From: a virus
Taxonomy: Duplodnaviria > Caudoviricetes
Length of the DNA stretch: 52,788 nucleotides
IMG/VR virus record: IMGVR_UViG_3300030061_000976
Span: 1-52,788 of that record
Reading direction: 5' to 3' (one strand)
Below the pieces are notes generated by a model, which was not told the origin of the DNA, made no database searches, and worked only from the letters and a program-made list of their open reading frames with translations. Every line of letters begins with the position of its first letter. Within the stretch, counting starts at the first letter, position 1. Below, piece after piece: positions 1 to 52,788 of this stretch. Made by a program: the position numbers and the translations under genes.

Positions 1-213
1 TTTGAGAGTGGAATGATATGGGCACCGGATGAACGTTGGGCGGACGAAGTCATCGATGAATGCGCGGCATTTCCGAATGGCGACTACGATGACCTTGTAG
101 ACAGCACGACGCAGGCTTTGATGCGGTATCGTCAGGGCAATTTTGTGCAACTTCCGAGCGACGATTGGGTAGATTCAGAGGAGTCCACCTACATCCGGAG
201 TTATTATGGCTGA
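1..213 (+). CDS. terL: Terminase large subunit, C-terminal fragment (phage A)
   Basis: Frame open from base 1; ECAAFPNGDYDDLVDSTTQA matches the TerL nuclease C-terminal FP..xDDxVD motif. Confidence 0.85.
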   Translation, partial: FESGMIWAPDERWADEVIDECAAFPNGDYDDLVDSTTQALMRYRQGNFVQLPSDDWVDSEESTYIRSYYG

Positions 214-2038
214 TCCCAAGATCCAGTATGAGTACGGTAGAACACCCGAAAAGACGGCCCCCGGTATATTGGGGTTCTTCAACCTGCTCAGTGGTCCGTT
301 AGTCGATGCCTTTACCCCGAAACGCCGCGAAGTCATTACACCCTCCCAAACAACGTACACCGAAGCGGACGGAATGTACTACCCGAACACCACTCCGGGT
401 GTGTATGGCCCTGTAGAGCGGGGCGTTGAGTACATGCCCGTGGTTCAAGGCGCAAAGTCCGCGTATGAGTTCCTTGGAGAACTGATATCCAGCGGCAAAA
501 AGCGCGGCGAGACGGCGGACGCCCTTGTAAAGGGTATCGGTACGTTGCTCGAAGACCAGAAACGCGCTGGTATAAACGCGGGTTTGGGTGGCGACCTACA
601 GTTTTACGACCCGAAACAGAAGCGCGTCGTAGGATATGATCCGTTGCTGGTGCCAACCCTTGCGGCAGCGGGCGCGATAGCCGCCCCCGTGAGAGGACCC
701 GGCGCAGTGGTCGGCATGTTCGCAGGCCGCAGGGCGTCCAACGCGGATCTGGATGCTCTTGAAACAGCTAAAAAGATGGAGAACAAGGGCCATTCTCGCG
801 ACGAAATCTGGGATCAAACGGGTTGGTTCCGGTTTAATGACCGCGACGGGAAACCCATGGGAGAGTGGAAGTTTGAAATACCTGACGAAGCCTCTTTTGC
901 TGTTACAGATACTGCCGCATTGAAGCCCTACTTGACACCCACCGGTCGGGTTAAAGAAGGTTCCGGAAGGACCGGTTATGGTCCTGAGATAGACAAGCTT
1001 CTTGTACATGACGAGTTGTACAAAAAAGCATACCCCGGTGTTGATCTTGCAGAAAACATTGTTTCTTTGGATGAAATAACTAGAAAAAGGGCGGCTCTTA
1101 TTCCAAAACTAACTGCGTTAAGAGCAAAGAAAAACGAAATGGATCCTTCTGAGTATCAAAAAGCGGTTGATGCTCTTGAAGAGGAAGATGCTGGTCTTTT
1201 ACGTGAACTACTAAAAAACATGCCTACAAGTGAATTTCCCGGTGGGCCTGCTAAAACCGCTCGTGAAAAGTTTCCTTTGATGGACAGACCCATAGGCGAC
1301 ACGCTTGTCGAAAGAACCACTTCAGGGGGAGAACTATCGGGAGGAACTGCTGGTTATTATCAGCCCGGTTTGAACATCATGGCTGTTCGGAGAGACAGGT
1401 ACAAAGATGCCTCGTATCAAATGGATCCAAAGTACTTTGAACTTTATGAAAAAGCTCAGAAAGATTTTGAAGATGCCGGTCTCTCGCTTCGTGCACTTTT
1501 GTTTGGAATGGAAATGCCAGACAGCGGCCTCCGTAGTGGATATAATTTAGAGTACCGTGTGCGTAAACTTGGAGAAACGGGGCCGGAAGGCGCGGTGGAC
1601 CCCAAAACCCTTCCAAAAAACTTAAAGAAGCAATTGGCTCAACTAGAAAAGTATGAACCAGAACAGAAACGCAAAGATCAACTTCGCGAATTTCGTTCAG
1701 TCGCCTTACACGAACTACAACATGCCATACAGCAAAGAGAGGGTTTTGAAAAAGGTGGCAATCCGTCGTATTTCAAAGGGAAAAAACTACCGATCAATCC
1801 AAAAACAGGAAAACGGTACACTCCTTACGAGCTTTATGAAGCTTTGGTTGGGGAGACTGAAGCTCGACTTGTTCAAGAAAGAAGAGACATGACACCGGAA
1901 GAGAGGCGGGCTACACCTCCATACTCTCAGGTTGATGAGTCCATGATGTACACCCGAAAAGACCTTGGCGTGCAGAGCAAAGCCTCCGGAGGCATGGTGG
2001 ATAAACCCTTGTACGGAAACGCAAGAGTGATAGGTTAA
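206..2038 (+). CDS. LPD23-like domain plus zincin metallopeptidase (polyvalent-protein type, probable internal virion protein)
   Basis: AKKM..G....IWDQTGWF...GEWKFEIPD (LPD23-like), LHELQHAIQQREGF (HExxH), YxxLxGETEARLVQER. Confidence 0.7.
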   Translation: MADPKIQYEYGRTPEKTAPGILGFFNLLSGPLVDAFTPKRREVITPSQTTYTEADGMYYPNTTPGVYGPVERGVEYMPVVQGAKSAYEFLGELISSGKKRGETADALVKGIGTLLEDQKRAGINAGLGGDLQFYDPKQKRVVGYDPLLVPTLAAAGAIAAPVRGPGAVVGMFAGRRASNADLDALETAKKMENKGHSRDEIWDQTGWFRFNDRDGKPMGEWKFEIPDEASFAVTDTAALKPYLTPTGRVKEGSGRTGYGPEIDKLLVHDELYKKAYPGVDLAENIVSLDEITRKRAALIPKLTALRAKKNEMDPSEYQKAVDALEEEDAGLLRELLKNMPTSEFPGGPAKTAREKFPLMDRPIGDTLVERTTSGGELSGGTAGYYQPGLNIMAVRRDRYKDASYQMDPKYFELYEKAQKDFEDAGLSLRALLFGMEMPDSGLRSGYNLEYRVRKLGETGPEGAVDPKTLPKNLKKQLAQLEKYEPEQKRKDQLREFRSVALHELQHAIQQREGFEKGGNPSYFKGKKLPINPKTGKRYTPYELYEALVGETEARLVQERRDMTPEERRATPPYSQVDESMMYTRKDLGVQSKASGGMVDKPLYGNARVIG

Positions 2039-2041
2039 ATT

Positions 2042-2920
2042 ATGGCTGACCAAGGAAAACCTGATCTAACAAAACTTTCGGCGGCAGAATACCTTCTGTT
2101 TACGTCCCGTGCTTACGAGGGCCGTGGTCGCTTAGAGGCTGGTCTTTCAAACGTGGAAGGTGCCGCTGCTCTTGTCCCCAAAGATCCAAACCTTCCTGAA
2201 GTAGCTGTGCAAGCTTCCCGAGAAATTGGACAGCCCGACAGAGCATCCTTGTCTGTTGGTTCAGATCTTCTTCGTTACTCGCGAAGATTTGAGGACGGGG
2301 ACATGGATGCCGGTGGCCCACGGACCACGGACACTGTTGAGGGTGGCGCTGGTCCTTTGAAAGGATACTATCAGCAGTCTACGCAGCCCGGTAATCAGGA
2401 CTCACGGACCACGGCCTATGGCGGTCAGCTAAATTTAGGTCCCGTAAACTTGTATGCAAACCGCAACCGCTCCAGCCAGGATGTAGTAGACCCGCGTTTC
2501 GCGCAGTATTTTCAAAACACTCGCTTCGACAATCAGACGGATAACGTAGGTCTTAATCTTCGTCTGCCCATGGGCAGTGGTGCGTTAACCGGTGGCGTTG
2601 GTCGCGAGTTTCGAACGCAATATCAACCGCAGCATTTGCGTCAGGAAACACGGCCCACGGCCCAATCTCCAAATGTAACGACGTATAGTGCGGGCTATGA
2701 GGGTAAGGTAGGTCCGGGTCGTTTGGGTTTGCAGGGCAACTTGACCGACGTTCGCAACGTCGGCACGAACAAGTCCGTTGAAGGCTCGTATAACGTAGAG
2801 GACCCCCTTGGTTTGGGCGGCAACCTTTCCGCGACGGGTTCTTACAAGAACCCGATTGGCGGAAAGAGCGCGACGGAAGCAATGCTTCGGTATAGATTGA
2901 AGTTTGGCGGCGGTAGATAG
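2042..2920 (+). CDS. Hypothetical protein, Gly-rich and beta-strand-rich (beta-barrel-like)
   Basis: 292-aa ORF tightly packed with neighbours; many alternating strands, ends AMLRYRLKFGGGR. Confidence 0.6.
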   Translation: MADQGKPDLTKLSAAEYLLFTSRAYEGRGRLEAGLSNVEGAAALVPKDPNLPEVAVQASREIGQPDRASLSVGSDLLRYSRRFEDGDMDAGGPRTTDTVEGGAGPLKGYYQQSTQPGNQDSRTTAYGGQLNLGPVNLYANRNRSSQDVVDPRFAQYFQNTRFDNQTDNVGLNLRLPMGSGALTGGVGREFRTQYQPQHLRQETRPTAQSPNVTTYSAGYEGKVGPGRLGLQGNLTDVRNVGTNKSVEGSYNVEDPLGLGGNLSATGSYKNPIGGKSATEAMLRYRLKFGGGR

Positions 2921-2952
2921 TATGATAAGAATTTCATCGAGGAGATTTTAAG

Positions 2953-3393
2953 ATGATGGGTAATATGATGGGCTTTCGTCCCCTTGGGTATGCCGACGGC
3001 GACCTTGTAATGGACGAGCAGGATCGGGTTGTTCTTATTGAGTATCTCATGGACATGACCGGCATGGGTGCGGGTACTTTCGTTGGTTTGTCCAACGCGC
3101 AACTTGAAAATGCTCGCAGGAAGGTTGACGCGGACGCCCTTGCAGCGCAGACGCAGCAAATGCAGCAGATGGCTCCCGTGCAAGGCCCTGCGGGTCTAAT
3201 GGCACCAATGCAGCAGGAGGCACCGTCTGTTGGAGCCGGTGTTGGATTTCTAAACAATCTTAGGGATTTGGACCAAGCAATGCAGCAGCCAAACATTCAG
3301 GGTTTTGTTCCTTCAATGCCGCAGGATAACATTGGCACGGGCATTCCCATGCAGATGGCAAGAGGCGGCATCATGTCCTTGGGGCGTAGATAA
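2953..3393 (+). CDS. Hypothetical Met/Gln-rich protein
   Basis: GAGGAG RBS upstream; 146 aa; ends MARGGIMSLGRR. Confidence 0.65.
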   Translation: MMGNMMGFRPLGYADGDLVMDEQDRVVLIEYLMDMTGMGAGTFVGLSNAQLENARRKVDADALAAQTQQMQQMAPVQGPAGLMAPMQQEAPSVGAGVGFLNNLRDLDQAMQQPNIQGFVPSMPQDNIGTGIPMQMARGGIMSLGRR

Positions 3394-3395
3394 CG

Positions 3396-5822
3396 ATGGC
3401 GAGGAACCCACTGCCCCGCAGTAACTTTGGAACGGCCTCCCTTGTAGAGCGCCGCGACGAAATACCCTCTGTCGATCTGGATGTTGAAGAATCTGCGGAA
3501 GTTGACGTAGCAGATTCTACCGTCATTGAGGCTCCCGGCCTTAATATCGAACTGGAGGACGACGGCGGCGTTGTAGTGGATTTCGATCCGCGCATGGAAG
3601 CGCCGGATACGGGCGACTTTTACGACAATCTAGCCGAGACCATCGAAGACCGGGTTTCGTCCATGGTTTCTTCGGAGCTTATGGAGCAGTATGAAGCCAA
3701 CAAGGACGGTCGCAAGGATTGGGAAGACGCCTATCGTACCGGACTAGAGCTTCTTGGTTTCAAATATGAAGAGCGTTCGGAGCCCTTTCGAGGCGCAACC
3801 GGCGTAACGCATCCGCTTCTTGCGGAAGCTGTGACCCAGTTTCAGGCGCAGGCTTTCGGAGAGCTTCTTCCCGCTGGTGGCCCGGTTCGCACAGAGGTTT
3901 TGGGTGAGGTTACACCGGAGGCAGACAGTCAAGCAGATCGCGTTCGCCACTTTATGAATTATCAGATTACGTGCGTGATGAAAGAGTACACGCCGGAATT
4001 TGACCAGATGCTGTTCTACTTACCGTTGTCGGGTTCTACCTTCAAAAAGGTCTACTACGACGAGTTTCTGGAACGCGCAGTCAGCAAGTTTGTGCCTGCG
4101 GAACAGTTGATTGTTCCGTACACCGCGACAGATCTGGAAACCTCCGAGAACGTTACGCACGTTATCCAGATTAGCGAGAACGAACTTCGTAAGAAACAGG
4201 TAGCTGGCTTCTATCGCGATATAGAAGTGTCTGCGTCCCAGTCGGATCCGTCCGATGTCCAAGAAGAGATGGACGATATATCCGGCATTACACCCAATCA
4301 CCTGGACCAAGAAGTCACGCTTCTGGAATGCCACGTTGACCTAGATCTGGAGGGCTACGAAGACATAGGCGATGACGGAGAGCCCACCGGCATAAAGCTT
4401 CCCTATGTTGTTACGGTATCCGAGAACAACGGAAAAATTCTAAGCATCCGTAGAAACTACAGACCGGACGATCCTGCGCGTAAGAAGAACCAGTACTTCG
4501 TGCATTTCAAGTTCCTGCCCGGATTTGGGTTCTACGGCCTTGGTCTGATACACATGATTGGTGGTCTAAGCCGTACAGCAACGGCTGCACTTCGACAGCT
4601 TATTGACGCCGGTACGCTTTCCAACCTTCCTGCGGGTTTCAAAACTCGCGGTTTACGCATACGCAATGACGATGAACCACTGTCTCCGGGCGAGTTCCGG
4701 GATGTGGATTCTCCCGGTGGTGCTATCCGCGAATCCTTGATGCTCCTGCCCTACAAGGGTGCGGATCAAACCCTGTTCCAGTTGATGGGCTTCTGTGTCG
4801 AGGCCGGTCAGCGTTTTGCAGCCGTTTCTAATCTACAAGTAGGAGACGGCAACCAACAGGCTGCGGTTGGAACAACCATAGCTATGCTGGAGCAGGGCGC
4901 AAAAGTAATGTCCGCTATACACAAGCGGCTTCACTATGCTCAAAAAGAAGAGTTTGAGCTTCTGGCTAGCGTTTTTGGAGAGTACCTGCCGCCAGAATAT
5001 CCATACAACGTTGTTGGTGCGGAACGCACTATAAAAGCGGAGGATTTCGATGATAGGGTTGATGTGGTCCCGGTGTCAGACCCAAATATCTTCTCAATGG
5101 CACAAAGAGTTACACTTGCACAAACAGAGCTACAGTTGGCTCAATCTGCGCCGGAGCTTCACAACTTGTATGAAGCGTATCGCAGGATGTATAGGGCGGT
5201 TGGTGTCAAAGACGTAGACGCTATACTCAAACCTGTAGAACAGGGGGAGCCCTCTCCTAAAGACCCGGCGCTGGAAAACTCGGAATCTTTGGAGAACATG
5301 CCACTAACCGTGTTTCAGGGTCAGAACCACGACGCCCATATCATGGCGCATCTTGTGTTCGGTTCGTCTCCGATGGTTTCTCAAATGCCTGTCGTAGCCA
5401 TGGCTTTACAGAAGCATGTCATGGAGCACGTTTCGGTAAAAGCCAAAGAACAGGTTGCGTCTCAGATGCAGCAGCAGCTTCAAGGCCAGCCTCCGAACGA
5501 GCAACAGGCCATGGAAATTGAAGGTATGGTAGCCGAACTGGTCGCTCAAGGTATGCAAGAAGTTAAATCGTTAAGCGCACAGATTAGCGGTGGCGGGGAA
5601 CCAGATCCTCTTATTGCATTGAAGCAGCAGGATCTAGAACTTCGGGCGCAACGAGATGCCGCCGAAAACCAGATAGACCAAGCTCGTCTGTCTCTTGACC
5701 AGCAGAAAGCTCAGAACACGGCTCAGTTGGGCGCAGAGAGAATACAGTCTCAGGAAGATATTGTGGCAGCGCGGATACAAGCTGCTCGCGAACGCGAACT
5801 TATGAAACAACAAAGCCAATAG
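3396..5822 (+). CDS. Portal protein, podovirus/P22-like type (phage A)
   Basis: 808 aa downstream of TerL; HPLLAEAVTQFQA, LPLSGSTFKKVYYD, FLPGFGFYGLGL; C-terminal Gln-rich coiled coil. Confidence 0.85.
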   Translation: MARNPLPRSNFGTASLVERRDEIPSVDLDVEESAEVDVADSTVIEAPGLNIELEDDGGVVVDFDPRMEAPDTGDFYDNLAETIEDRVSSMVSSELMEQYEANKDGRKDWEDAYRTGLELLGFKYEERSEPFRGATGVTHPLLAEAVTQFQAQAFGELLPAGGPVRTEVLGEVTPEADSQADRVRHFMNYQITCVMKEYTPEFDQMLFYLPLSGSTFKKVYYDEFLERAVSKFVPAEQLIVPYTATDLETSENVTHVIQISENELRKKQVAGFYRDIEVSASQSDPSDVQEEMDDISGITPNHLDQEVTLLECHVDLDLEGYEDIGDDGEPTGIKLPYVVTVSENNGKILSIRRNYRPDDPARKKNQYFVHFKFLPGFGFYGLGLIHMIGGLSRTATAALRQLIDAGTLSNLPAGFKTRGLRIRNDDEPLSPGEFRDVDSPGGAIRESLMLLPYKGADQTLFQLMGFCVEAGQRFAAVSNLQVGDGNQQAAVGTTIAMLEQGAKVMSAIHKRLHYAQKEEFELLASVFGEYLPPEYPYNVVGAERTIKAEDFDDRVDVVPVSDPNIFSMAQRVTLAQTELQLAQSAPELHNLYEAYRRMYRAVGVKDVDAILKPVEQGEPSPKDPALENSESLENMPLTVFQGQNHDAHIMAHLVFGSSPMVSQMPVVAMALQKHVMEHVSVKAKEQVASQMQQQLQGQPPNEQQAMEIEGMVAELVAQGMQEVKSLSAQISGGGEPDPLIALKQQDLELRAQRDAAENQIDQARLSLDQQKAQNTAQLGAERIQSQEDIVAARIQAARERELMKQQSQ

Positions 5823-5831
5823 GAGATCGCT

Positions 5832-6011
5832 ATGGCAAAGGAATCTTCAAACGCTACGAAGAAAGGCATTGTAGTTGAGGACCAGGGTTATGTTCCTTAC
5901 AACGATGCAAAGGATGAAAAAACTCCGAATGTTGCAAAAGCTTCCGTGGTTTCGGGTAAGAACCGTGGCATGGGTGAAGCTATTCGGGGCGGCACTTTCA
6001 AAATTTCTTAA
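5832..6011 (+). CDS. Small basic protein (59 aa, MAKESS...RGMGEAIRGGTFKIS)
   Basis: AGGAG RBS at 5821, ATG 5832, TAA 6009-6011; below the ORF-track cutoff. Confidence 0.65.
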   Translation: MAKESSNATKKGIVVEDQGYVPYNDAKDEKTPNVAKASVVSGKNRGMGEAIRGGTFKIS

Positions 6012-6030
6012 TTTTACAGGAGATCTACAG

Positions 6031-6192
6031 ATGAACTGGATTCTTAGTCGAATGAAAGAGCCTTCTAGCTATGCCGCTCTTGGCGGTGGAGTTGTAGGAA
6101 TTGGCGTTCTTATCAGCCAGCCTATTGTCATCATTATTGGCATTGTTGGCGGCGCTGCCGGTTTCCTACTGAAGGAAAAAGGCGTTATCTAG
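6031..6192 (+). CDS. Small membrane protein, holin-like (copy A)
   Basis: AGGAG RBS; MNWILSRMKEPSSYAAL plus two hydrophobic segments; homolog at 50609-50770 lies between endolysin and spanins. Confidence 0.65.
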   Translation: MNWILSRMKEPSSYAALGGGVVGIGVLISQPIVIIIGIVGGAAGFLLKEKGVI

Positions 6193-6194
6193 CT

Positions 6195-6728
6195 ATGCTA
6201 CGGTGGATTGGGCTGGCCGCTTTTGCGGTAGTTCTGTCCACCGGGGCAGCTTATGCGGCAGATACTGTAACGTCTGCTACGGTAAGCAGTTCAACAGTAG
6301 TTGACAAAACACCACCTACAGCATCCAGCCCTTCAATAGTCGTTAACAACAACGATATCTGTCAAGTTGGAACCAGTGGCGCTTTGCAGACTGGTCTTTT
6401 TGGTGTGTCCGGTGGCACCACCACTCGTGATCTAAACTGCGAGAGGATCAAGCTGGCACGGTCTGTGTTTGGTATGGGGCTGAAGGTTGCTGGCATTAGC
6501 ATTCTTTGTCAGGAAGTGCGTGTGTTCGACGGCCTTTGGATGGCCGGAACTCCTTGTCCGTTTATGGGCAAGATCGGGGACGCGGCGAGGCAAGAGTGGA
6601 TCAAGAACCCGGAGAAAGCGCCGGAAGGTTCTATTGTGCGGTTGCAGGTAAAAGCGGAAACTGTATCTTTGCAGCCTCAACAGAGTTCTGATTGGCCTGA
6701 CGAAGAAGAATGGTACGGAGGCGATTGA
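6195..6728 (+). CDS. Secreted Cys-containing conserved phage protein (module gene 1, copy A)
   Basis: Signal peptide ending AYA-A; PPTASSPS, DICQ, NCERIKL, ILCQ, GTPCP; near-identical mature region at 51741-52301. Confidence 0.8.
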   Translation: MLRWIGLAAFAVVLSTGAAYAADTVTSATVSSSTVVDKTPPTASSPSIVVNNNDICQVGTSGALQTGLFGVSGGTTTRDLNCERIKLARSVFGMGLKVAGISILCQEVRVFDGLWMAGTPCPFMGKIGDAARQEWIKNPEKAPEGSIVRLQVKAETVSLQPQQSSDWPDEEEWYGGD

Positions 6729-7215
6729 TGCGTTGGCTGATCGCATTCCTGCTTATGTCGTCTTCTGCATTAGCGGAGACAGTAACGACGACTAATGTCC
6801 TTCCAGATCTGTCTGCGTTTACGACAAGTGGATCCACGACATCTGCTGGTTCCGCAAGAGGTTGCAGTGCCGGAGAGTTTTGTACGGGTAACGCTACGGC
6901 GGGCGGCGGAACTTATACGAGCACTTTTGATGTTCCGTTAACCGAGGACGAGGTTCGCAGAGGCTTTACCCTCAACAGCGCGGTTACCGTGGACAGTCAT
7001 CCGAGTAACGCTACGCTCTCTACATGCACGAGCGTTACGCAGGTGGGGGACTGTCGCGATCTTTTTACGTTAGGGATCACACTTTTAGACGGGGGAACCG
7101 TAGCGAAAGAGTTTACTCACGAGGTAGAATTAGACTTTACTGGGGAGAGGTTGTTTTCGTTCTCGGACACGATGGTGGAGAACGACTTTGGAATTTTGAC
7201 GGGAACCTTTTCTCT
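6258..7215 (+). repeat. Diverged direct repeat, copy 1 (pairs with 51831-52788)
   Basis: Same offset (45,573) at both ends; mostly synonymous differences; last 77 nt identical. Confidence 0.95.
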
Positions 7216-8080: not shown

Positions 8081-8081
8081 T

Positions 8082-8618
8082 ATGGCTGAAGTAGAATTTG
8101 CGGGGGTCAAGTTTAAGGGCGGCAAGATGGTTGCTGTGGTCATAGGGCTATCTACACTAGTTGGCGGTCTTTACGGAGCCTTTGAGGTCTACAAGGACTA
8201 TGAACAGATGAAAGCAAAGATAGCGAGTTACACAGCGCCAGACCTAAGTGGGATCAGGCAGGAGCAAGCTGTTCAGAATGAGACCGTAAATGCCGTTATG
8301 AAAGAAATGGAGTCTGTCCGTCTGCGGGTCAGCGAGATACAACAGATTGCGCGAGATTTACGAGAGGATCAGCGCAGTGATAGTGGAAAGCTATATAAGT
8401 CAATTGGAGCAGTGGATCGAAGGTCAAGAGAGGCTGATTCTGATACTCGCGCCGCAATGCGCCAAGCAGAAGTAACTCTGCGAGATATCACCTCTAATGC
8501 GAGTTCGCGTTTTGATAGCAAAATCAATTCAGTAGATGAAAAACTTGATGCTCTGGAATCCAGACTCAACAAGACTTTGCAACGTGCGCTTGATAACCCA
8601 CTATTGAAAGGAAAGTAA
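8082..8618 (+). CDS. Membrane-anchored coiled-coil protein (module gene 3)
   Basis: MAEVEFAGVKFKGGK, one TM segment, long heptad region, ends ALDNPLLKGK. Confidence 0.75.
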   Translation: MAEVEFAGVKFKGGKMVAVVIGLSTLVGGLYGAFEVYKDYEQMKAKIASYTAPDLSGIRQEQAVQNETVNAVMKEMESVRLRVSEIQQIARDLREDQRSDSGKLYKSIGAVDRRSREADSDTRAAMRQAEVTLRDITSNASSRFDSKINSVDEKLDALESRLNKTLQRALDNPLLKGK

Positions 8619-8619
8619 T

Positions 8620-9659: not shown

Positions 9660-9684
9660 GGCTATCCCTCGTTACCTTGATGTC
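9646..9684 (-). terminator. Intrinsic terminator-like hairpin overlapping the oxygenase start
   Basis: GACATCAAGG-N13-CCTTGATGTC perfect 10-bp stem followed by T6 on the minus strand. Confidence 0.65.
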
Positions 9685-10211: not shown

Positions 10212-10222
10212 ACCGCCCCCCA

Positions 10223-43728: not shown

Positions 43729-46361
43729 TGCCAGCGGCAGTACCAGTAGTGCTTGCCGGTGTTGCCTCTGGCGTAACTATATCAGGAACGTTAGCGGCAG
43801 GGATCACAATTGGGTTTAGCGTTGGCTCCGCCTTAGTGGGTGCAGCTTTGGCCGCTGTATCTATCGCCCTTACCCCGAAACCAAAGCAACCTTCATTTGA
43901 TGTAAGCGCGTTTCAAACAGCGGCACAAGATAGAGAGCGATCCTTTCGACAGCCTATAACTACAAGAAAACTAGCTTACGGAGAGATTAAAGCCGGTGGT
44001 CCGTTAATAAACGTAGCGGCTACTGAGTCAGACGGCAAAGACAACAATCTATTGCATCTTTTTGTTGTACACGCCGCTCATGAGGTTGATAGCATAATAT
44101 CATGGTTTCTTGATGCTGAAGAGATACCGATAGCCAGTGTGTCCGGTGGGGCGTCTGGAGGTGCTGTAAATGCAGGGGAGTATAGCGGTCTTGTGACCGT
44201 AAATCCGCATTTAGGCACAAATCCCCAATCCGCTGATGCCGATGCCGTTTCATTAATAGATGGATGGACTTCAAACCACACTTTAAACGGAGTTTTCTAT
44301 AATTATTGGCGGTTTACGTTTGATAATGATAAGTTTCATCAAGTGCCAGAAATAGGTTGTTTATTTAAGGGTAAGAAGGTTTATGACCCTAGAACAGGTG
44401 GGACGGCGTACTCAGCCAATGCTGCTTTGGTTTTGTATGACTATTTAAGGGATGATCTTGGGCTTTCAGTAAACGCTGATAAAATAGATGCGGCCTCATT
44501 TATAGCAGCAGCCAATATATGTGACGAAGATGTTTCCCTTGCGGAAGGCGGCACTGAAAAAAGATATGAAGCACACGGGGTAATTGATACCGGGTTGCCG
44601 CCGGGAAGTAATATCGAAGACATACTTACGGCAATGTCAGGTTCATTGGTTTACGTTAATGGTCGGTTTTACGTTTATGCTGGTGCTACCAAAACATCAA
44701 AGTTAAGTTTTGATGAGGGGGATATTACTTCAGAAATCAACATTATTCCCCGCATGTCGCGGCGAGATAACTTTAATGCGGTCAAGGGACAGTTTATATC
44801 CCCATTAAATAATTTCCAATTGAGTGATTATCCAGCAGTAACTAGCTCAGTTTTTGAAGAGGAAGACAATGGGGAGCGCATATTTAATGATTTAGAGCTT
44901 CCGTTCACATCATCCCCTTCCGCCGCGCAGCGTATAGCCAAGATTGCTCTTTATAGGAATAGACAGCCGCTAGCGTTTGAGGCGACTTTTTCATTGGCTG
45001 CTCTAGGGTTGATACCGGGTGATGTGTTTGAGGTTTCGTTTGAAAGATATGGGTGGTCATCAAAGAAATTTGAAGTCATCGAATGGAATTTCGTTATTAA
45101 TAACGGGATTCTACAAGTCAGCATAAAAGCGAAAGAATACTCTGATGATGTTTATTCATTCTCAGTTAGCGAACAGCAGATTGTAACATCAGCGCCTAAC
45201 ACCACAATCCCCAACGTATTGACCCTACAGCCTGTTAACAACTTGGTAGCTTCAGAAGAGCTTGTAGTCACCCGTGATGGCAGAGGCGTTCAATCCGTTC
45301 TTACAGTATCTTACACCCCAGCAACGGATGCTTTCGCTTATTTTTCTGAGATGGAATATAAGGCTACTAGCTCCTCAACTTACATTACGGGTGGAACAAC
45401 TACTGGCGTTTCCTTTGAGATACTAGATTTAGCACCGGGCAGCTATGATATACGAGTGCGGGCTACATCTCTTATAGGAACTCGATCTGAGTATGTTTCT
45501 ATTGTTAAAGATGTCACCGGATTGTTGACTGCGCCTAGCGCGATGACAGGATTGAGTGTGCAACAAGTCGGAGGTATGGCGTTACTGCAATGGGATCAGT
45601 CAACCGATCTTGATGTGCGAGTAGGCGGGAAAGTGGAAATAAGATTCCAAAATGCCACATCTAGCATTGAATGGCCGAAAAGCCTCTTAGTAGATAATTC
45701 AGTACCGGGCGAAGCTACCAGTGCAATGGTGCCGTTGAGATCAGGGACTTATCTTCTTAAATTCGTTGACGGCTCTGGAGTAAAGCAAACAAATCCTACG
45801 GTTGTGACATCAGTAGGCGCTACAATCCTAGCCTTTACTAATCAAACCACAGTCACAGAAAGCACTGCTTTTGCCGGGACTAAGACAAACCTTTTCGTTG
45901 ATTCAAATCAATTGCAATTAAGCGGAGGGGGATTGTTAGATGCAGCATCAGATTTTGATCTCATACCCAATTTTGATTTCTTAGGCGGGATATCTTCAAC
46001 CGGCACATATGATTTCGCTAGTAACATTGACATGACATCAAAAACGAGAGTGCGGCTTACAGCCAATCTCACGGCTCTCACATCTATTGTGTTGGATAAC
46101 ATTGATGCCAGAACAGCAAACATTGACACATGGGAAGATTTTGATGGTACGGCGGGAGCTAACCCAACTAATATAGCTATGTATTACGCATCAACGGATG
46201 ACAATCCTTCATCAGGCAGTCCTACGTTCACGGCGTATAAATTATTCACGCAAGCCGAAGAGCATGCAAGAGCATTTAAATTCAGGGCAATATTCACTTC
46301 ATCCGATCCCGCTTATACGGTAAGGTGCAGTGCTTTGGCCGTAACTGCCGCGACTATTTAG
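43728..46361 (+). CDS. Central tail fibre / host-specificity protein (gpJ-like, FN3)
   Basis: YGE...GG, KG.KVYDPR, N.AL...DYL, FN.VKG, AQR.AKI.L, YDIRVRA. Confidence 0.85.
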   Translation: MPAAVPVVLAGVASGVTISGTLAAGITIGFSVGSALVGAALAAVSIALTPKPKQPSFDVSAFQTAAQDRERSFRQPITTRKLAYGEIKAGGPLINVAATESDGKDNNLLHLFVVHAAHEVDSIISWFLDAEEIPIASVSGGASGGAVNAGEYSGLVTVNPHLGTNPQSADADAVSLIDGWTSNHTLNGVFYNYWRFTFDNDKFHQVPEIGCLFKGKKVYDPRTGGTAYSANAALVLYDYLRDDLGLSVNADKIDAASFIAAANICDEDVSLAEGGTEKRYEAHGVIDTGLPPGSNIEDILTAMSGSLVYVNGRFYVYAGATKTSKLSFDEGDITSEINIIPRMSRRDNFNAVKGQFISPLNNFQLSDYPAVTSSVFEEEDNGERIFNDLELPFTSSPSAAQRIAKIALYRNRQPLAFEATFSLAALGLIPGDVFEVSFERYGWSSKKFEVIEWNFVINNGILQVSIKAKEYSDDVYSFSVSEQQIVTSAPNTTIPNVLTLQPVNNLVASEELVVTRDGRGVQSVLTVSYTPATDAFAYFSEMEYKATSSSTYITGGTTTGVSFEILDLAPGSYDIRVRATSLIGTRSEYVSIVKDVTGLLTAPSAMTGLSVQQVGGMALLQWDQSTDLDVRVGGKVEIRFQNATSSIEWPKSLLVDNSVPGEATSAMVPLRSGTYLLKFVDGSGVKQTNPTVVTSVGATILAFTNQTTVTESTAFAGTKTNLFVDSNQLQLSGGGLLDAASDFDLIPNFDFLGGISSTGTYDFASNIDMTSKTRVRLTANLTALTSIVLDNIDARTANIDTWEDFDGTAGANPTNIAMYYASTDDNPSSGSPTFTAYKLFTQAEEHARAFKFRAIFTSSDPAYTVRCSALAVTAATI

Positions 46362-46372
46362 GAGCATAAAAG

Positions 46373-47008
46373 ATGGCCCAACATGATTATGTAATTGCAA
46401 ATGCTGACGGTGCTACCGTAAGAGCGGATATCAATAGTGTCCTGTCAGCTATAGCGTCAAACAACTCCGGTGGCTCTGATCCAAGCACAAAATACTCTTA
46501 TCAGTTCTACTATGACACTGGAGACAACAAGCTGAAACTGCGGAACGCCGCGAATGATGCTTATATTACTCTTGGTACGTTTACTCACGGGTCTGGGACC
46601 GGCACGACAACAATTGTTCAAAGTGATGTAAACCAAACCTTCAGCAAGGCTCAAAGGGGCAGCATAACCACGACTAATTCGACCACTGGTGGAGCTATCA
46701 CGCTTGATATGGCTAACAACAATTACTTCAAGCTGAGTAATAATGCCGGTGCGGGTACGTTGGGAAGTGATAACAGTGGTGCATACACATTGGCCAACCC
46801 AAGCAATTTAACAGCGGGACAATCAGGATCAATTATAATTACACAAGATGGTACGGGCGGAAGAACTCTCTCATACGGCACCAACTGGGATTTTCCCGGC
46901 GGGACCGCCCCTACCCTAAGCACTGCTGCATCAGCGGTTGATAGAATTGACTACATAGTAGTAAGCGCATCATCCATCCATTCTGTGATTTCGTTGGATG
47001 TAAAATAA
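46373..47008 (+). CDS. Tail fibre/adaptor protein
   Basis: MAQHDYVIAN..GA.VR.DIN; QDGTGGRT.....W.F.GGTAPTLST. Confidence 0.75.
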   Translation: MAQHDYVIANADGATVRADINSVLSAIASNNSGGSDPSTKYSYQFYYDTGDNKLKLRNAANDAYITLGTFTHGSGTGTTTIVQSDVNQTFSKAQRGSITTTNSTTGGAITLDMANNNYFKLSNNAGAGTLGSDNSGAYTLANPSNLTAGQSGSIIITQDGTGGRTLSYGTNWDFPGGTAPTLSTAASAVDRIDYIVVSASSIHSVISLDVK

Positions 47009-49308
47009 TGTCTGGGCCTCTTAACTCAGATACAATAAGGGCTGGAGCAGCGGGGGCTTCTGGCAGCGCTGGCTACCAAATAGATCAGTCTATTCGTTTC
47101 AACAAAAATGATGACGCCAAACTAACCAGAACATTTGGCACAGCTACAAACCGTAGAAAATTTACTTTGTCCGTGTGGCAAAAAAACGGAAGCAGTGCAG
47201 GCTCAATGCTAGAGTATAATCAATCTGGTGGAAGCACATGGGCTAACATTACCATAGGTGCAAATGGTCGTGTAGATATTTTTGATTATTCTAGCGGAAG
47301 TGCTAGAATTGATTTGCGAACTACGAGACTTTTTCGTGATTTCTCTGCTTGGGTTCATCTAGTTGTTGCTTTTGATACCACACAAGGGACTGCCGCTAAT
47401 CGTATTAAAGTATATATAAATGGAACCCAAGAAACTAGTTTTGGAACGGAGACATATCCTAGTCAAAACTTTGATGGGTTTCTTAACTCCGCTGTAGAGC
47501 ATTTAATTGGTGAAGGTGTTAATGGTCCATTTGATGGGTACATTGCAGAGTATTATTTTATTGATGGTCAACAATTAGGACCAGATAGCTTTGGCGAAAC
47601 TAACGACGATGGCGTTTGGATACCGAAGGATGCGTCAAGCCTGACGTTTGGAAACACCGGCTATTACCTAGACGGCAGCGATAGCTCTGATCTTGGTGAA
47701 GACTTCTCAGGAAACAATAATGATTGGTCCAGCAGTGGCTTGACCGCAGCGGATCAGATGTCGGATACCCCGACTAACAACCACTGCACTTTAAATCCTC
47801 TTAACAAAGATACTGACTGCACTCTAACAGATGGAAATTTGCAAGTTGGTTGGACTAGCGGAACTGATCCAATCATTTGCGGAACAATGGGTGTATCTAG
47901 CGGCAAGTGGTATTATGAAGCTACCTTTACAGGAACTTTTAATTTTCCGGGCGTTGGCATAGCACCAGCAGAATTATCTTTTGGTGGCAGTGCTTTTTCT
48001 TCTGGCACTGGTACGATCTTTTACTACGCACCTTCTGGCAATTACCGAGGAAACGGCGACAACACATCTTACGGTGCGGAATACTTTGTAAGTAGCAAAA
48101 TTGGTGTGGCTCTTAATTTAGATGACAATCAAATAACTTTTTATAAAGATAATTCGTCACAGGGAACCTTGAACTTAGCAAGTATACGTTCTGGATATAG
48201 CACATGGGTGCCACTTGTAACTGGCGGCGGATCTATTGAAAATATCATTGTTAATTTTGGACAGTCAGACTTTCAATACACACCACCGACAGGTTTCAAG
48301 GCATGGAACACTAGCAACCTTCCCGCACTAACAATCGCAGATGGCTCAGAGTATTTTCACACTCAGCCATACACGGGCAACGGTTCCAGTGGACTTGCAA
48401 TTACAAACGACGCAAACGCCGGAGATTTTGAACCGGACCTTCTCATTCTCGCACCCCGATCTAACGGCGATAATAAAGTCTGGTTTGATGATGTACGAGG
48501 CACAACAAAGCGAATAAAGTCAAATAGCGCCGATGCCGGTGATACGGACAGTACCGCGCAGCTTACGTTTGAGAGTGACGGATTTGATCTAGACACGACA
48601 GATGTAAACTTCAACGGCTCAGGCAGAACCTATGTCACGTGGCAATGGAAAAAAGGAGCAACCCCCGGCTTTGATATTGTTGAGTACACGGGCAACAAAA
48701 CCAACCGCACAATTTCGCATTCGTTAGGAGTTGCTCCAGAGTGGATTGTTATTAAAGACTACTCAAACACTGAGAGTTGGGTCGTTGGTCACAATTCGAT
48801 TGGCTGGACAAAAAACCTTTTTCTCAATCTGACTAATGCCCAGCAAACCAGTTCATCAATCTGGCAAGACACTGCGCCAACAAGTTCTGTTTTCTCAATC
48901 GGAACAAGCGACGGTGTAAACAAAGTTGGATCGCACATAGCGTATCTTTGGGCACCGGTTGCTGGATTTTCAAAGTTTGGTTCCTACACAGGAAATGGAA
49001 ATGTAGACGGGCCTTTTGTGGCGACCGAATTTCGTCCCGCCTTTGTGATGCTGAAACGAGCGGATAGTGCCGATAACTGGGTGATTGTTGACAGTGCGCG
49101 GAACCCTTTCAACGTCGCAAATCTTCGTCAGCTCTTGGACACTAATAACGCTGACATAACCTCTACGACCCACGATTTTCTTTCAAATGGATTTAAACTT
49201 CGTGCGAGCGATGGGGGAGTAAATGCGTCGGGCGGTACGTTTGTATACATGGCATTCGCTGAAAACCCATTCGGCGGCGACGGTATAGCGGCAGTCACAG
49301 CAAGATAA
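47008..49308 (+). CDS. Receptor-binding protein with LamG/ConA, SPRY and repeated YTGNG domains
   Basis: FRD.SAW.H.VVA.DTT (LamG); SSGKWYYE...IGVALNLD...NFGQ (SPRY); YTGNG, HSLGVAP, YMAFAE.PF. Confidence 0.8.
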   Translation: MSGPLNSDTIRAGAAGASGSAGYQIDQSIRFNKNDDAKLTRTFGTATNRRKFTLSVWQKNGSSAGSMLEYNQSGGSTWANITIGANGRVDIFDYSSGSARIDLRTTRLFRDFSAWVHLVVAFDTTQGTAANRIKVYINGTQETSFGTETYPSQNFDGFLNSAVEHLIGEGVNGPFDGYIAEYYFIDGQQLGPDSFGETNDDGVWIPKDASSLTFGNTGYYLDGSDSSDLGEDFSGNNNDWSSSGLTAADQMSDTPTNNHCTLNPLNKDTDCTLTDGNLQVGWTSGTDPIICGTMGVSSGKWYYEATFTGTFNFPGVGIAPAELSFGGSAFSSGTGTIFYYAPSGNYRGNGDNTSYGAEYFVSSKIGVALNLDDNQITFYKDNSSQGTLNLASIRSGYSTWVPLVTGGGSIENIIVNFGQSDFQYTPPTGFKAWNTSNLPALTIADGSEYFHTQPYTGNGSSGLAITNDANAGDFEPDLLILAPRSNGDNKVWFDDVRGTTKRIKSNSADAGDTDSTAQLTFESDGFDLDTTDVNFNGSGRTYVTWQWKKGATPGFDIVEYTGNKTNRTISHSLGVAPEWIVIKDYSNTESWVVGHNSIGWTKNLFLNLTNAQQTSSSIWQDTAPTSSVFSIGTSDGVNKVGSHIAYLWAPVAGFSKFGSYTGNGNVDGPFVATEFRPAFVMLKRADSADNWVIVDSARNPFNVANLRQLLDTNNADITSTTHDFLSNGFKLRASDGGVNASGGTFVYMAFAENPFGGDGIAAVTAR

Positions 49309-49318
49309 GGATAGTGAA

Positions 49319-49864
49319 ATGTTTGTATTGAATAATGAAAAGATATTAAGGCCGGGTAGACCTTGGACTGCAAGCAATGGAGTTAAGCATCCTAGCAATT
49401 GGGCGTCATGGTCGTCTGATCTTTTGGCAAGTCACGGTATTGTTGAAGTAGCAGAGCAAACCAAGCCAGATAGCAAGTTTTACACAATCTCAAGTCTTAA
49501 TCTTGATGGAACATGGTCTGCGACGGCAAAGCCGGTTGAAGATGTTACTGAGACTATTGACGGCAAAGATTATGTCTCTAGAGGATTAAAATTTGAATGG
49601 ACAGAAAAGACTAATGAGACAGCCAACAGTCTTTTACAGCCCTTTGATTGGCAGATAATAGCAAACGCGGAGAGAGATCGAGCCGTTGACTCTAATGTTG
49701 CCACTTACAGAGCAGCTATTATAAGTAAATGCACCACAATCAAAGCGGCTATTGCAGATTGCTCTAATCTTGACGCTTTCAAGGCTCTATTTGTTACTCC
49801 GGTTGATAGTGATGGGATAGCAACAGGAAATCCGCCTATTCATGATTGGCCGAAGTTAGGGTAA
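49319..49864 (+). CDS. Tail-fibre-associated protein
   Basis: HP.NW, A.SLL...DW, YRAA, C-terminal WP. Confidence 0.65.
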   Translation: MFVLNNEKILRPGRPWTASNGVKHPSNWASWSSDLLASHGIVEVAEQTKPDSKFYTISSLNLDGTWSATAKPVEDVTETIDGKDYVSRGLKFEWTEKTNETANSLLQPFDWQIIANAERDRAVDSNVATYRAAIISKCTTIKAAIADCSNLDAFKALFVTPVDSDGIATGNPPIHDWPKLG

Positions 49865-49869
49865 TTATA

Positions 49870-50034
49870 ATGACAACGGCTAAGGAAATTGATGCAAAGC
49901 TACAGACTCATGAGGCGGTGTGCGCGGAACGATGGAAAGAGACCATTGAGCGTATAAAGAGGCTTGAGTTGATTTTGATAACATCTGCCGGGGCTGTCAT
50001 AATGCTTATGGCTGGTATGCTGTGGAAGTTCTGA
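49870..50034 (+). CDS. Small membrane protein (coiled coil plus C-terminal TM)
   Basis: HEAVCAERW...RLE plus hydrophobic tail; precedes the endolysin. Confidence 0.65.
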   Translation: MTTAKEIDAKLQTHEAVCAERWKETIERIKRLELILITSAGAVIMLMAGMLWKF

Positions 50035-50035
50035 T

Positions 50036-50506
50036 ATGACTACAAAATTAACAGATCACTTTACACTTCAAGAGATGTGCAGGAGCGATACCGCTACGCG
50101 CCTTGGAATTGATAACATACCTACAGACGATGTAATCATTGCGAATCTGCGGGCGGTGTGTGTCCATGTTCTTGAGCCGGTTCGCACTCATTTTGATACG
50201 CCATTTTCACCTAACAGTGGATACAGGTGTTCTGCTTTAAACAAAGCAATTGGGTCTTCATCAAAGAGCCAGCACACAAAGGGGCAAGCGGCGGATATTG
50301 AAGTACCGGGTGTAGATAATTCTGTTCTTGCTGAATGGATCAAGGAAAATTGCACTTTTGATCAACTAATCTTGGAGTTCTATAAATCAGGTGAACCGGC
50401 ATCGGGGTGGGTACACGCATCATTTATTTTGCCGGATTACGGTGTAAATCGCGCTCAGTGCATAACCTTTGATGGTAATGCGTATATGCAGGGTTTACAG
50501 CCCTAA
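50036..50506 (+). CDS. Peptidase M15A endolysin
   Basis: HFTL.E, SGYRC..LN.AIG, SQH..G.AAD, FDQLILE, WVH. Confidence 0.9.
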   Translation: MTTKLTDHFTLQEMCRSDTATRLGIDNIPTDDVIIANLRAVCVHVLEPVRTHFDTPFSPNSGYRCSALNKAIGSSSKSQHTKGQAADIEVPGVDNSVLAEWIKENCTFDQLILEFYKSGEPASGWVHASFILPDYGVNRAQCITFDGNAYMQGLQP

Positions 50507-50608
50507 AGCTCGCCAGCGGCGCTTATAAGGCGTTCTAGAGGGTATTATGATAGGCTTTCTAGGTGAGATGTAGGGTTAAGACGTTAACTGAACCTAACGG
50601 AGGAAGAA

Positions 50609-50770
50609 ATGAAATATATTAAAGATCGAATGACTGAGCCATCCAGCTATGCAGCGGCGGGTGCTGCCGTGGTTGGTATCGGGGTATTGATTAATCAACC
50701 GATTGTTATCCTGATTGGTGTTGTCGGTGGTGCGCTTGGCTTTATCCTGAAAGAAAAAGGCGTCATCTAA
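50609..50770 (+). CDS. Small membrane protein, holin-like (copy B)
   Basis: GGAGG RBS; MKYIKDRMTEPSSYAAAGAAVVGIGVLINQPIVILIGVVGGALGFILKEKGVI; between endolysin and spanins. Confidence 0.7.
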   Translation: MKYIKDRMTEPSSYAAAGAAVVGIGVLINQPIVILIGVVGGALGFILKEKGVI

Positions 50771-51169
50771 GTGCTAAAAATCTATCTACTTGTTGTAGTG
50801 GTGGGTCTCGTAGGCGGTTCGGTTTATGGGGCTTACTACTACTACAAGGATAGCCAGCAGCGCATCCAGACACTAACTGAAAACACGGCTAAGTTAGAGA
50901 CTGCTAAGAAGATGCAAGATGACACGATCACCGCTATGATTGAGGATCGAGAAAAGTTTGATGAGTTAAATAAGGAATTGCAGAGCAAACTCAACGCCGC
51001 CAACGAATATAAGGATGTACTTATCGGTAAGCTACGCAAGCATGATCTTGCAAAACTTTCCATGAAGAAACCCGGCCTAGTAGAAAAGAGGATAAACAAT
51101 GGCACGAATAAATTGTTACGTTCGCTCGAAGCTATTTCCGGCGCTGTTGCTCCTGCCCCTGCTAAGTAG
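50771..51169 (+). CDS. Inner-membrane spanin (i-spanin)
   Basis: N-terminal TM plus coiled coil; KPGLVEKRIN.GT; overlaps the lipoprotein gene. Confidence 0.75.
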   Translation: MLKIYLLVVVVGLVGGSVYGAYYYYKDSQQRIQTLTENTAKLETAKKMQDDTITAMIEDREKFDELNKELQSKLNAANEYKDVLIGKLRKHDLAKLSMKKPGLVEKRINNGTNKLLRSLEAISGAVAPAPAK

Positions 51170-51494
51170 TGGTTGCACCAACTTTAAGGAAATCTTGCCG
51201 GTAGAGATTAAGACGGTAGAGGTAGAGCGTAAGATACCAACTCAAAATCGCCCTCGTCCTGTATCGTTGAATAAGTTGCATTTCTATGTAGTTACAGAAG
51301 ACACGTTCGCATCTTTCAAGCAGCGTTTTGAGAAAGAGAACGGCGATCTGTTGTTCTACGCAATAAGCGTCAGAGACTACGAAACGCTTGCTTTGAACAT
51401 GGCTGAAATAAAGCGATTTATTGAGCAGCAAAAGCAGATTATCATCTATTATGAGAACGCGGTTAAGCCCAAGCCTAAGAAGCCAAGCGAATGA
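51099..51494 (+). CDS. Outer-membrane spanin lipoprotein (o-spanin)
   Basis: Lipobox LSSGC; DYE.LALN..EI.RFI.QQ...I.YYE. Confidence 0.75.
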   Translation: MARINCYVRSKLFPALLLLPLLSSGCTNFKEILPVEIKTVEVERKIPTQNRPRPVSLNKLHFYVVTEDTFASFKQRFEKENGDLLFYAISVRDYETLALNMAEIKRFIEQQKQIIIYYENAVKPKPKKPSE

Positions 51495-51760
51495 ACTTGA
51501 AAGGAAAAGTTTACAAACTAACAAACTTACAGAGTCGTAGGTTTCTGGCTCTTAGTTTTGTTGGGTTTCATCAGCATCACCATCAAGGGGTTGCCCTGTG
51601 CGCTGACGTTGAGGAAGAATTGTTGAAAACCAAGATGATCCAAAATGCTGGTGATTACGTTGAAATCACTGAGCGGGGTCTTAAAGAGATAGCTCGTCTT
51701 GCTACGCTGGCTGGAATAGTCATGCCGTGGGAAGATAGCAATGAAAAATCAGTTCAATAA
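51491..51760 (+). CDS. Hypothetical protein
   Basis: 89 aa, coupled on both sides. Confidence 0.5.
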   Translation: MNLKGKVYKLTNLQSRRFLALSFVGFHQHHHQGVALCADVEEELLKTKMIQNAGDYVEITERGLKEIARLATLAGIVMPWEDSNEKSVQ

Positions 51761-52301
51761 TTTAGCTGTATGCCTGCTTCTAGCGTTCTGCTTGTTTCTG
51801 GCGTTTTCTTTTGTTTCTCCATCATATTCTGCTGATACAGTAACATCAGCAACGGTGTCTAGTTCAACCGTAGTTGACAAAACACCACCTACAGCATCTA
51901 GCCCTTCAATAGTCGTTAACAACAACGATATCTGTCAAGTCGGAACCAGTGGCGCTTTGCAAACTGGTCTTTTTGGTGTGTCCGGTGGCACAACCACGCG
52001 AGACTTAAACTGCGAGAGGATCAAGCTGGCACGGTCTGTGTTTGGTATGGGGCTAAAGGTTGCTGGCATTAGCATTCTTTGTCAGGAAGTGCGTGTGTTC
52101 GACGGCCTTTGGATGGCTGGAACGCCCTGCCCGTTTATGGGCAAGATTGGGGACGCGGCGAGACAGGAGTGGGTCAATAATCCTGAGAAATCGCCGGAAG
52201 GTTCTATTGTGCGGTTGCAGCTAAAAGCGGAAACGGTATCTTCGCAGCCTCAACAGAGTTCTGATTGGCCTAACGAAGAAGAATGGTACGGAGGCGACTG
52301 A
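51741..52301 (+). CDS. Secreted Cys-containing conserved phage protein (module gene 1, copy B)
   Basis: Different signal peptide; mature part differs from 6195-6728 at 6 residues. Confidence 0.8.
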   Translation: MKNQFNNLAVCLLLAFCLFLAFSFVSPSYSADTVTSATVSSSTVVDKTPPTASSPSIVVNNNDICQVGTSGALQTGLFGVSGGTTTRDLNCERIKLARSVFGMGLKVAGISILCQEVRVFDGLWMAGTPCPFMGKIGDAARQEWVNNPEKSPEGSIVRLQLKAETVSSQPQQSSDWPNEEEWYGGD

Positions 52302-52788
52302 TGCGTTGGCTGATCGCATTCCTGCTTATGTCGTCTTCTGCGTTGGCGGAAACTGTAACGACGACCGATGTTCTTCCCAATCTGTCCGCGTTTACGACAA
52401 GTGGGTCAACGACATCTGCTGGTTCTGCGAGAGGCTGTAGCTCCGGCGAGTTTTGCACGGGCAACGCTACGGCGGGTGGCGGAACTTATACAAGCACTTT
52501 TGATGTTCCATTGACCGAGGATGAGGTTCGCAGAGGCTTTACCCTCAACAGCGCGGTTACCGTGGACAGTCATCCGAGTAACGCTACGCTTGCTACATGC
52601 ACGAGCGTTACGCAAGTGGGGGACTGCCGCGATCTTTTTACGTTAGGCATCACGCTTTTGGACGGGGGAACCGTAGCGAAGGCGTTTACTCACGAGGTAG
52701 AATTAGATTTCACTGGGGAGAGGTTGTTTTCGTTCTCGGACACGATGGTGGAGAACGACTTTGGAATTTTGACGGGAACCTTTTCTCT
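51831..52788 (+). repeat. Diverged direct repeat, copy 2 (pairs with 6258-7215)
   Basis: Direct comparison with copy 1. Confidence 0.95.
52301..52788 (+). CDS. Module gene 2, 5' part (copy B; continues at 7216 on the circle)
   Basis: MRWLIAFLLMSSSALAETV... open to the window end, colinear with 6728 onward. Confidence 0.8.
   Translation, partial: MRWLIAFLLMSSSALAETVTTTDVLPNLSAFTTSGSTTSAGSARGCSSGEFCTGNATAGGGTYTSTFDVPLTEDEVRRGFTLNSAVTVDSHPSNATLATCTSVTQVGDCRDLFTLGITLLDGGTVAKAFTHEVELDFTGERLFSFSDTMVENDFGILTGTFS

Follow-up and report, generated by a model that had tools for sequence, protein, structure and literature searches.

The record IMGVR_UViG_3300030061_000976 of the IMG/VR collection, a stretch of 52,788 nucleotides (nt) from a tailed virus (Duplodnaviria; Caudoviricetes) analysed here at its full length (the window), is currently held as one linear virus genome with a CheckV completeness of 100%. 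Our analysis indicates that the record is very probably not one molecule: it corresponds to a lasso-shaped path in an assembly graph, in which the complete circular genome of a 45,573-bp siphovirus (the loop) is attached to 7.1 kb of a co-occurring podovirus (the stem). This layout had been put forward in an earlier note on the same DNA, which proposed to compare coverage and single-nucleotide polymorphism (SNP) phasing on either side of position 7139 and to look for links from 52711 to 7139 and from about 6000 to beyond 9000. The parts of the window that carry the argument are the following, including those of a module shared by stem and loop (the cassette; ORF, open reading frame; aa, amino acids):

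1-7138, plus strand: stem (tail of the lasso), packaging module of an HTVC023P-type podovirus, outside the circular genome
7139-52711, plus strand: loop, complete siphovirus genome of 45,573 bp, circular or circularly permuted, with a full gene set and a closure bridged by the relative contig L252
7139-7215, plus strand: merge node, first 77-mer common to two paths, exact copy of 52712-52788
52712-52788, plus strand: terminal 77-mer, redundant second copy of 7139-7215, marking the closure of the circle
6247-7138, plus strand: copy A of the shared module (allele of the tail phage), with most of the gene for a 177-aa secreted protein (6195-6728) and the 5′ part of a 456-aa gene
51820-52711, plus strand: siphovirus allele of the shared module (copy B), comprising the gene for a 186-aa secreted protein (51741-52301) and, from 52283, the 5′ portion of the 456-aa gene
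6710-8080, plus strand: gene for the 456-aa protein in the form found in the window, chimeric, its 5′ part coming from the tail allele and its 3′ part from the siphovirus allele
5875-6192, plus strand: ORF whose C-terminal 53 aa or so correspond to a small membrane protein of the holin-like kind; an unannotated small ORF at about 50620-50770 is its homologue

The terminal 77-nt repeat

The window ends with 77 nt (52712-52788) that reproduce 7139-7215 exactly, and these are the only two places where the 77-mer is found in the sequence, which contains 0 N. The base adjacent to it on the 5′ side is C at 52711 and T at 7138, so that the exact repeat and the differing preceding base described in the earlier note were both reproduced. 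To the left the match stops at this mismatch; to the right it is cut off by nothing but the end of the contig. By our own estimate, the chance of an exact 77-nt repeat in 52.8 kb is about 1e-37 and thus negligible. Upstream of the 77-mer the two copies were described as colinear yet diverged, and this is what we observed: 6247-7138 and 51820-52711 align without gaps at a fixed offset over about 890 nt, with an identity of about 92%. Going upstream, the identity per 100 nt was 98, 91, 96, 88, 89, 95, 89, 94, and 97; beyond the 890 nt or so it dropped to 64 and then to random levels (13-35). Over 6247-7215 (969 nt) the copies differ at 77 positions. The offset between them, 45,573 nt, equals 3 × 15,191, and the reading frame is preserved. 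Codon differences between copies A and B were mostly synonymous (synonymous/nonsynonymous 33/5 and 28/8), indicating that both copies are functional alleles and not errors.

The longest exact runs upstream of the 77-mer measured 68, 62, 49, 43, and 41 nt. Since none of them exceeds 68 nt, 7139-7215 is the first 77-mer that both paths have in common. One of the usual, default k-mer sizes in SPAdes is 77, and we infer that the assembler worked with k = 77. The 77-nt match bears the mark of a de Bruijn path (k = 77) closing on itself rather than of a biological repeat of 77 nt. In the mechanism that we propose, the loop would be the whole circular or circularly permuted genome of a marine siphovirus, and the stem a piece of a co-occurring HTVC023P-type podovirus with its own allele of the cassette. 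The alleles of the two phages are about 92% identical, and their graph paths would merge where they become identical for at least 77 nt. At this point the assembler would leave the path of the podovirus for that of the siphovirus and, after going round the circle, the contig would stop on reaching the first 77-mer already used. The merge lies inside the 456-aa gene of the 92% identical cassette, in agreement with the previous suggestion that the second phage enters the graph through a shared gene.

The stem belongs to an HTVC023P-type podovirus

The stem carries the following genes, with two small ORFs between the LPD23 protein and the portal:

1-207, plus strand: 3′ end of a large terminase (TerL) gene, last 69 aa (tblastn); the contig begins inside the gene
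206-2038, plus strand: 610-aa protein with an LPD23 domain (PF18838, 1.8e-17)
3396-5822, plus strand: 808-aa SU10-like portal (PF23899 SU10_portal, 1.3e-14; phrog_1216, 1.5e-58)

The TerL fragment was 62% identical to residues 421-489 of the TerL of DSL-LC04 and 57% identical to residues 424-492 of that of HTVC027P (tblastn). The portal was 51-54% identical at the amino acid level to those of DSL-LC04, the environmental genome 023Pt_psg01, and the Pelagibacter phages HTVC027P and HTVC023P, and about 45% identical to those of Roseobacter phages CRP-901/902. Among the IMG/VR matches to the portal pattern, 389 out of 390 encode a relative of the 808-aa protein. The product of 206-2038 was also considered as a terminase and was ruled out, as it has an LPD23 domain and no terminase family in Pfam or PHROGs.

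The presence of two unrelated portals in the window was confirmed: the stem portal belongs to PF23899 and phrog_1216 and the 646-aa portal of the loop to PF04860, and a BLASTP comparison between them gave E = 0.87. The companion claim of two unrelated terminases held in part. The loop has a complete TerL and a second TerL is present in the stem, but the latter is a C-terminal fragment of 69 aa. Likewise, the assignment of 1-7138 to a second phage stands, and its bare description as unrelated can be refined, the TerL and portal placing it with the HTVC023P-type podoviruses. This group is described in PMC9599517, together with multigene transfers across families; its phylogeny markers there are PolA, a DEAD/DEAH helicase, the primase, and the capsid.

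The closest relative of the stem was G002, a contig of 26,368 bp whose portal is 100% identical in amino acid sequence to the 808-aa portal. Its colinearity with the window starts at a complete TerL and extends to about position 8200; identity then falls to 51-59%, and its own spanin genes come next. The stem also differs from the loop in composition. Its G+C content (GC) is 0.512 vs 0.458 in the loop, and the tetranucleotide correlation of the stem with six chunks of the loop was 0.31-0.40, compared with 0.59-0.88 among the loop chunks. The GC of SAR11 phages is far below 51%, and given the 51% GC of the stem its host is probably not SAR11.

At the other end of the stem, positions 1-213 of the window were matched at 72-91% by many IMG/VR loci, and in other runs the summed depth over these first 213 nt reached 513 and 400 vs 9-13 in the next bin. 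This conservation in many contigs, together with the very high depth, indicates that the 5′ end of the contig also lies at a tangle of the graph.

Closure of the loop in relatives

The terminase, portal, protease, major capsid, connector, tail tube, tape measure, baseplate/fibre, lysis, and replication genes are each present once in the loop. After the lysis genes come an 89-aa ORF, the 186-aa secreted protein, and the start of the 456-aa gene, which continues in frame across the closure. A search with the siphovirus-specific 89-aa ORF yielded four metagenome loci and no relatives in the viral contig collection. One of the four, L252 (a contig of 33,030 bp), aligned in order to 41634-47103 (91.6%), 49219-52788 (85%), and 6252-8225 (77%), and continued over 8578-9907, 10056-10995, and 11266-16503 (about 90%). 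Nothing resembling 1-6246 was found in L252 between the end of the window and the region after 7215. The order of these alignments shows that L252 crosses the closure directly, without the stem, into the replication genes. A second locus, L249, also spans the spanins through the whole 456-aa gene. The closure is thus a true adjacency in the relative L252 and, with the full siphovirus gene set, it upholds the view of 7139-52711 as one complete genome. As for the link from 52711 to 7139, it was found as a colinear arrangement in the contig of this relative, whereas the junction 60-mer of the same strain was not recovered from the viral and metagenome contig collections (see below).

The opposite link, from about 6000 to beyond 9000, was absent from the contigs compared: none of 80 portal loci or 43 cassette loci joined the 808-aa portal to 8600-9700. 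A search of the viral contigs with the oxygenase encoded at 9075-9659 gave 95 relatives, and among the 80 retained only L169 was close (83% aa). This contig ends 113 nt past the oxygenase gene and is uninformative on the junction.

Depth and allele phasing

The levels of coverage were taken from Logan contigs of the sequencing run X1. The four contigs corresponding to the stem had depths of 10.3, 6.77, 7.25, and 9.54, and a 20,104-nt contig from the circle, covering 7837-15000 with 0 differences from the window, had a depth of 18.4. The coverage on either side of 7139 was therefore about two-fold different in this run (stem 6.77-10.3, circle 18.4). Over 8001-15000 the summed depth was 18.4-19.1; if the stem also continued on the path of the window, a depth of about 29 would be observed beyond position 8000.

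Allele depths pointed in the same direction. At 7018-7108, letters other than those of the window had a depth of 18.7 out of 28.9, leaving about 10.2 for the A letters of the window, and 12 of the 13 other letters listed at 6482-7108 were those of copy B. With B letters at 18.7 and A letters at about 10, copy B carries the depth of the loop and copy A that of the stem. Past the node, at 7316-7933, window letters had a depth of about 15-18 and a minor variant one of about 8. This variant had the G002 letter at 14 of the 16 listed sites, comprising all 12 sites with depths of 7.94-8.02 and, in addition, sites 7387 and 7396 (20.9, summed over three contigs). SNP phasing is thus in line with the earlier proposal, the A and B alleles carrying stem and circle depth and a G002-like variant appearing beyond the node. 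Most likely, the stem phage continues on this G002-like allele, which is absent from the window. The genomes change over within the shared stretch, in the interval from 7139 to about 7387, and not at one base. No drop in identity towards G002 was seen at 7139; the mosaicism of the cassette makes it unsuitable for such a comparison. In three further runs, taken from other studies (X4, X20, and X6), relatives of both parts were present, with differing identity and holes; no contig in them joined the parts, and no conclusion was drawn from them.

Alternative explanations

Several points weigh against the lasso interpretation. The depths are per-contig k-mer means from one run and not read pile-ups, and the X1 variant sites and contig pieces considered are among those listed. 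X1 contains 0.95 of the sampled words, and it is the only one of the four runs compared in which both parts occur nearly identical to the window; a few stem sites (e.g., 614, 3692, and 5234) nevertheless read differently in X1, which may be a sibling of the source sample rather than the source itself. More than two alleles are present near 7387-7396, where three contigs sum to 20.9, and over 6300-7138 copy A is not nearer to G002 than copy B is. L252 belongs to a different genome, related at 85-92%. Finally, an exact 60-mer over the boundary between copy B and the 77-mer had 0 matches in the viral and metagenome contig collections, which may omit the window's own records.

By sequence alone, a repeat would likewise make a contig stop on an internal k-mer, and the window could reflect a real linear molecule of at least 52.8 kb with two diverged copies of the cassette, at the second of which the assembler stopped; the linear call of IMG/VR and the CheckV rating of 100% are in line with such a molecule. 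We find this explanation barely credible, as the molecule would be made up of parts of different composition and would carry two portals unrelated to each other and, in addition to one whole terminase, a fraction of another, and as L252 joins the ends of the loop directly. In X1, moreover, the depth differs two-fold between the parts, and that over 8001-15000 equals the depth of the B allele alone. The mosaic alleles of the cassette (e.g., L006, see below) and its occurrence in at least four genomic contexts mark it as a recombination hot spot, and a genuine recombinant phage, with podovirus packaging genes joined at the cassette to a siphovirus backbone, might coexist with the circular siphovirus. 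Its presence would have brought the X1 depth over 8001-15000 to about 29 instead of 18.4, however, and the G002-like allele of depth 8 is available as the stem's own continuation. No contig among the portal and cassette loci described above links the 808-aa portal to 8600-9700, and a podovirus portal placed in a backbone with its own portal would have no obvious viability. Such a recombinant is therefore highly improbable.

A further alternative concerns the loop itself, which would be incomplete if the match of the window's end to 7139 joined two siphovirus strains, in which case 45,573 bp would not be the true length. The coexistence of several cassette alleles in the runs compared and the failure to recover a contig of the same strain across the closure leave some room for it. 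On the other hand, the gene set is complete and syntenic, L252 has the same adjacency and spacing, the B-allele depth in X1 (18.7) agrees with that of the loop (18.4), and the closure leaves the frame of the 456-aa ORF intact, all of which makes an incomplete loop very unlikely. Altogether, a circular siphovirus genome entered from a podovirus path is the reading that we retain.

The shared cassette

The products of the cassette are two secreted proteins, one Cys-rich and 177-186 aa long and the other of 456 aa, and a small membrane protein resembling holins. The region of the small membrane protein matched at 69% of nucleotides between 6048-6191 and 50626-50769, and a hydrophobic segment was noted in translation. 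The 456-aa protein is made up of a signal peptide, a beta-sandwich domain, a long Pro/Glu-rich linker (TonB-like), and a conserved C-terminal domain. A model of its residues 1-215 obtained with AlphaFold2 (AF2) had a predicted local distance difference test score (pLDDT) of 82.7, and the best Foldseek matches of the beta-sandwich were Fbs1 sugar-binding domains and carbohydrate-binding modules (E 4e-7, with moderate template modelling (TM) scores of 0.41-0.51). No Pfam or PHROG family was found for this protein, and a sequence search of the PDB gave no match (E 0.78); matches in the Atlas were all below 0.9 and serve as leads only. At least 454 homologues were identified (E <= 0.001 among the candidates scored), in marine phages and none of known function; two of the source names include the word 'TonB', presumably from the spacer.

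The GC of the cassette is higher than that of the loop (0.52 in both copies and 0.56 over 7216-8080, vs 0.458), and for this reason the cassette looks imported in the siphovirus. Related contigs present it in four contexts. The cassette follows the portal in G002 and others, lies between TerL and the spanins/portal in G003, comes after a fibre gene in G001, and is placed behind the spanins in the loop and L252. The alleles are mosaic, with L006 being 100% identical to copy A over 6300-6799 and yet placed in another context.

A segment of the siphovirus fibre (48279-49019) was 88% identical in nucleotide sequence to positions 18500-19240 of G001, and 72-75% identical to genes in G002rc 24008-24384 and G003rc 22369-22773. 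G001, G002, and G003 all carry a TerL of the HTVC023P type. The fibre segment looks like an exchange of a receptor-binding part between phage families, and the sharing of the fibre and cassette suggests a common host for both phages. The mosaic cassette and the shared fibre segment fit the cross-family exchange of modules that PMC9599517 describes for the podovirus group. Tentatively, and with slightly more doubt than confidence, we propose that the sharing of an envelope cassette of about 2 kb by a siphovirus and a podovirus of the same water, taken with that of the fibre segment, would mark a cassette moving between phage families that infect one host, where it might act at the envelope, in lysis, or in the exclusion of other phages.

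Gene content of the siphovirus

Further genes of the loop were identified as follows:

9075-9659, leftward: 2OG-Fe(II) oxygenase
Leftward group of the loop: DUF932 gene
14969-16711, minus strand: primase/helicase (phrog_239, 2.6e-87)
16708-17115, leftward group: O-like replication initiator
17167-17526, leftward group: RusA
18461-19252, rightward early group: Erf
19648-20040, rightward early group: SSB
26559-27890, plus strand: large terminase, complete (PF03237, PF17289; phrog_979, 8e-45)
27875-29815, plus strand: portal, 646 aa (PF04860, 1.5e-75; phrog_12, 6.9e-82)
33045-35146, plus strand: head maturation protease and HK97-type major capsid protein (phrog_80, 1.4e-55; phrog_10, 1.7e-66; PF05065, 5.6e-71)
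Connector genes of the loop: adaptor and tail completion protein
38269-49308, plus strand: tail module, with major tail protein, tape measure (39469-41775), Dit, tail proteins, J-like protein (43713-46361), and fibre (47008-49308)
50036-51494, plus strand: lysis genes, with M15 endolysin, small holin-like ORF, i-spanin, and o-spanin (PF08291, 2e-21; phrog_894, phrog_739, phrog_812)

The best cultured matches of the loop TerL were those of Microcystis phage Mae-JY09 (47% aa) and Roseobacter phage CRP-6 (44% aa). A megablast search of 1-9000 and 28000-52788 against 50,697 phage records gave no nucleotide match, and a tRNA scan found none.

Other features of this genome were noted. The rightward cluster at 21285-26089, a possible module for DNA modification or anti-defence, encodes an amidoligase, a gamma-glutamyl cyclotransferase-like protein, two proteins with ParB-like nuclease domains, and a PAPS-reductase-like protein with DUF3440. 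The 606-aa Mu-F-like head protein (29757-31577) has a long C-terminal extension with a sub-threshold Pfam match to ATLF (22.7 bits, cut-off 27.4), and may be a polyvalent head-packaged protein. Just 3′ of the cassette, 8082-8919 contains two ORFs of 178 and 99 aa. The former has the look of an i-spanin, with a membrane anchor at its N-terminus and an extended region of coiled-coil-like sequence; two segments of the latter are hydrophobic, and its EF-hand-like match is weak (20.9 bits, under the cut-off). An intergenic repeat of about 30-65 nt occurs on both strands of the siphovirus, in copies 73-87% alike (10673-10736, 32168-32231, 32155-32184, 32860-32889, and, inverted, 21189-21243), and three similar copies are found in the relative G004; these elements are probably promoter or leader sequences. 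In the early leftward region, 9907-10056 and 10997-11266 are skipped by relatives (the X6 contig, L169, and L252) as small indels.

Consequences for the record

Left uncorrected, the record would mislead estimates of genome length and completeness as well as host prediction, would place a siphovirus and an HTVC023P-type podovirus together in gene-sharing networks, and would invite claims of two portals in one phage. It can be curated by dropping 1-7138 and the terminal 77 nt and labelling the record circular. The one biological point of some interest is the presence of the mosaic cassette and the fibre segment in different phage families, a form of sharing that fits the module transfers already described for the podovirus group in PMC9599517.

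Comparison with known systems

The end of the window resembles the usual k-mer overlap at the ends of circular de Bruijn contigs (SPAdes-type) in being an exact end repeat of a length plausible for k, and in that the length of the loop equals the spacing of the two copies. It differs from this overlap in that the match is internal rather than at the first bases of the contig, and in the extra 7,138-nt stem from another genome. With the overlap internal and the stem attached, checks based on end repeats class the record as linear.

Both phages represent new members of established types. The stem has the gene order TerL, large protein, and portal in common with HTVC023P-type podoviruses such as DSL-LC04 and HTVC027P. 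It comprises only 7.1 kb with moderate identities to these phages; PolA, the helicase, and the capsid lie beyond the fragment, and its classification rests on the TerL and portal region. The loop, in turn, is comparable to the marine siphoviruses CRP-6 (44.9 kb) and Mae-JY09, to which its TerL is 44-47% identical in amino acid sequence over 89-95% of the length. Its genome is of similar size, and its HK97-type capsid, PF04860 portal, and Mu-F-like head protein can be set beside theirs. On the other hand, the siphovirus of the loop has no match at the nucleotide level among the 50,697 phage records searched, and its closest relatives are the uncultured contigs L123 (portal 96% aa) and L252 (about 90% nt).

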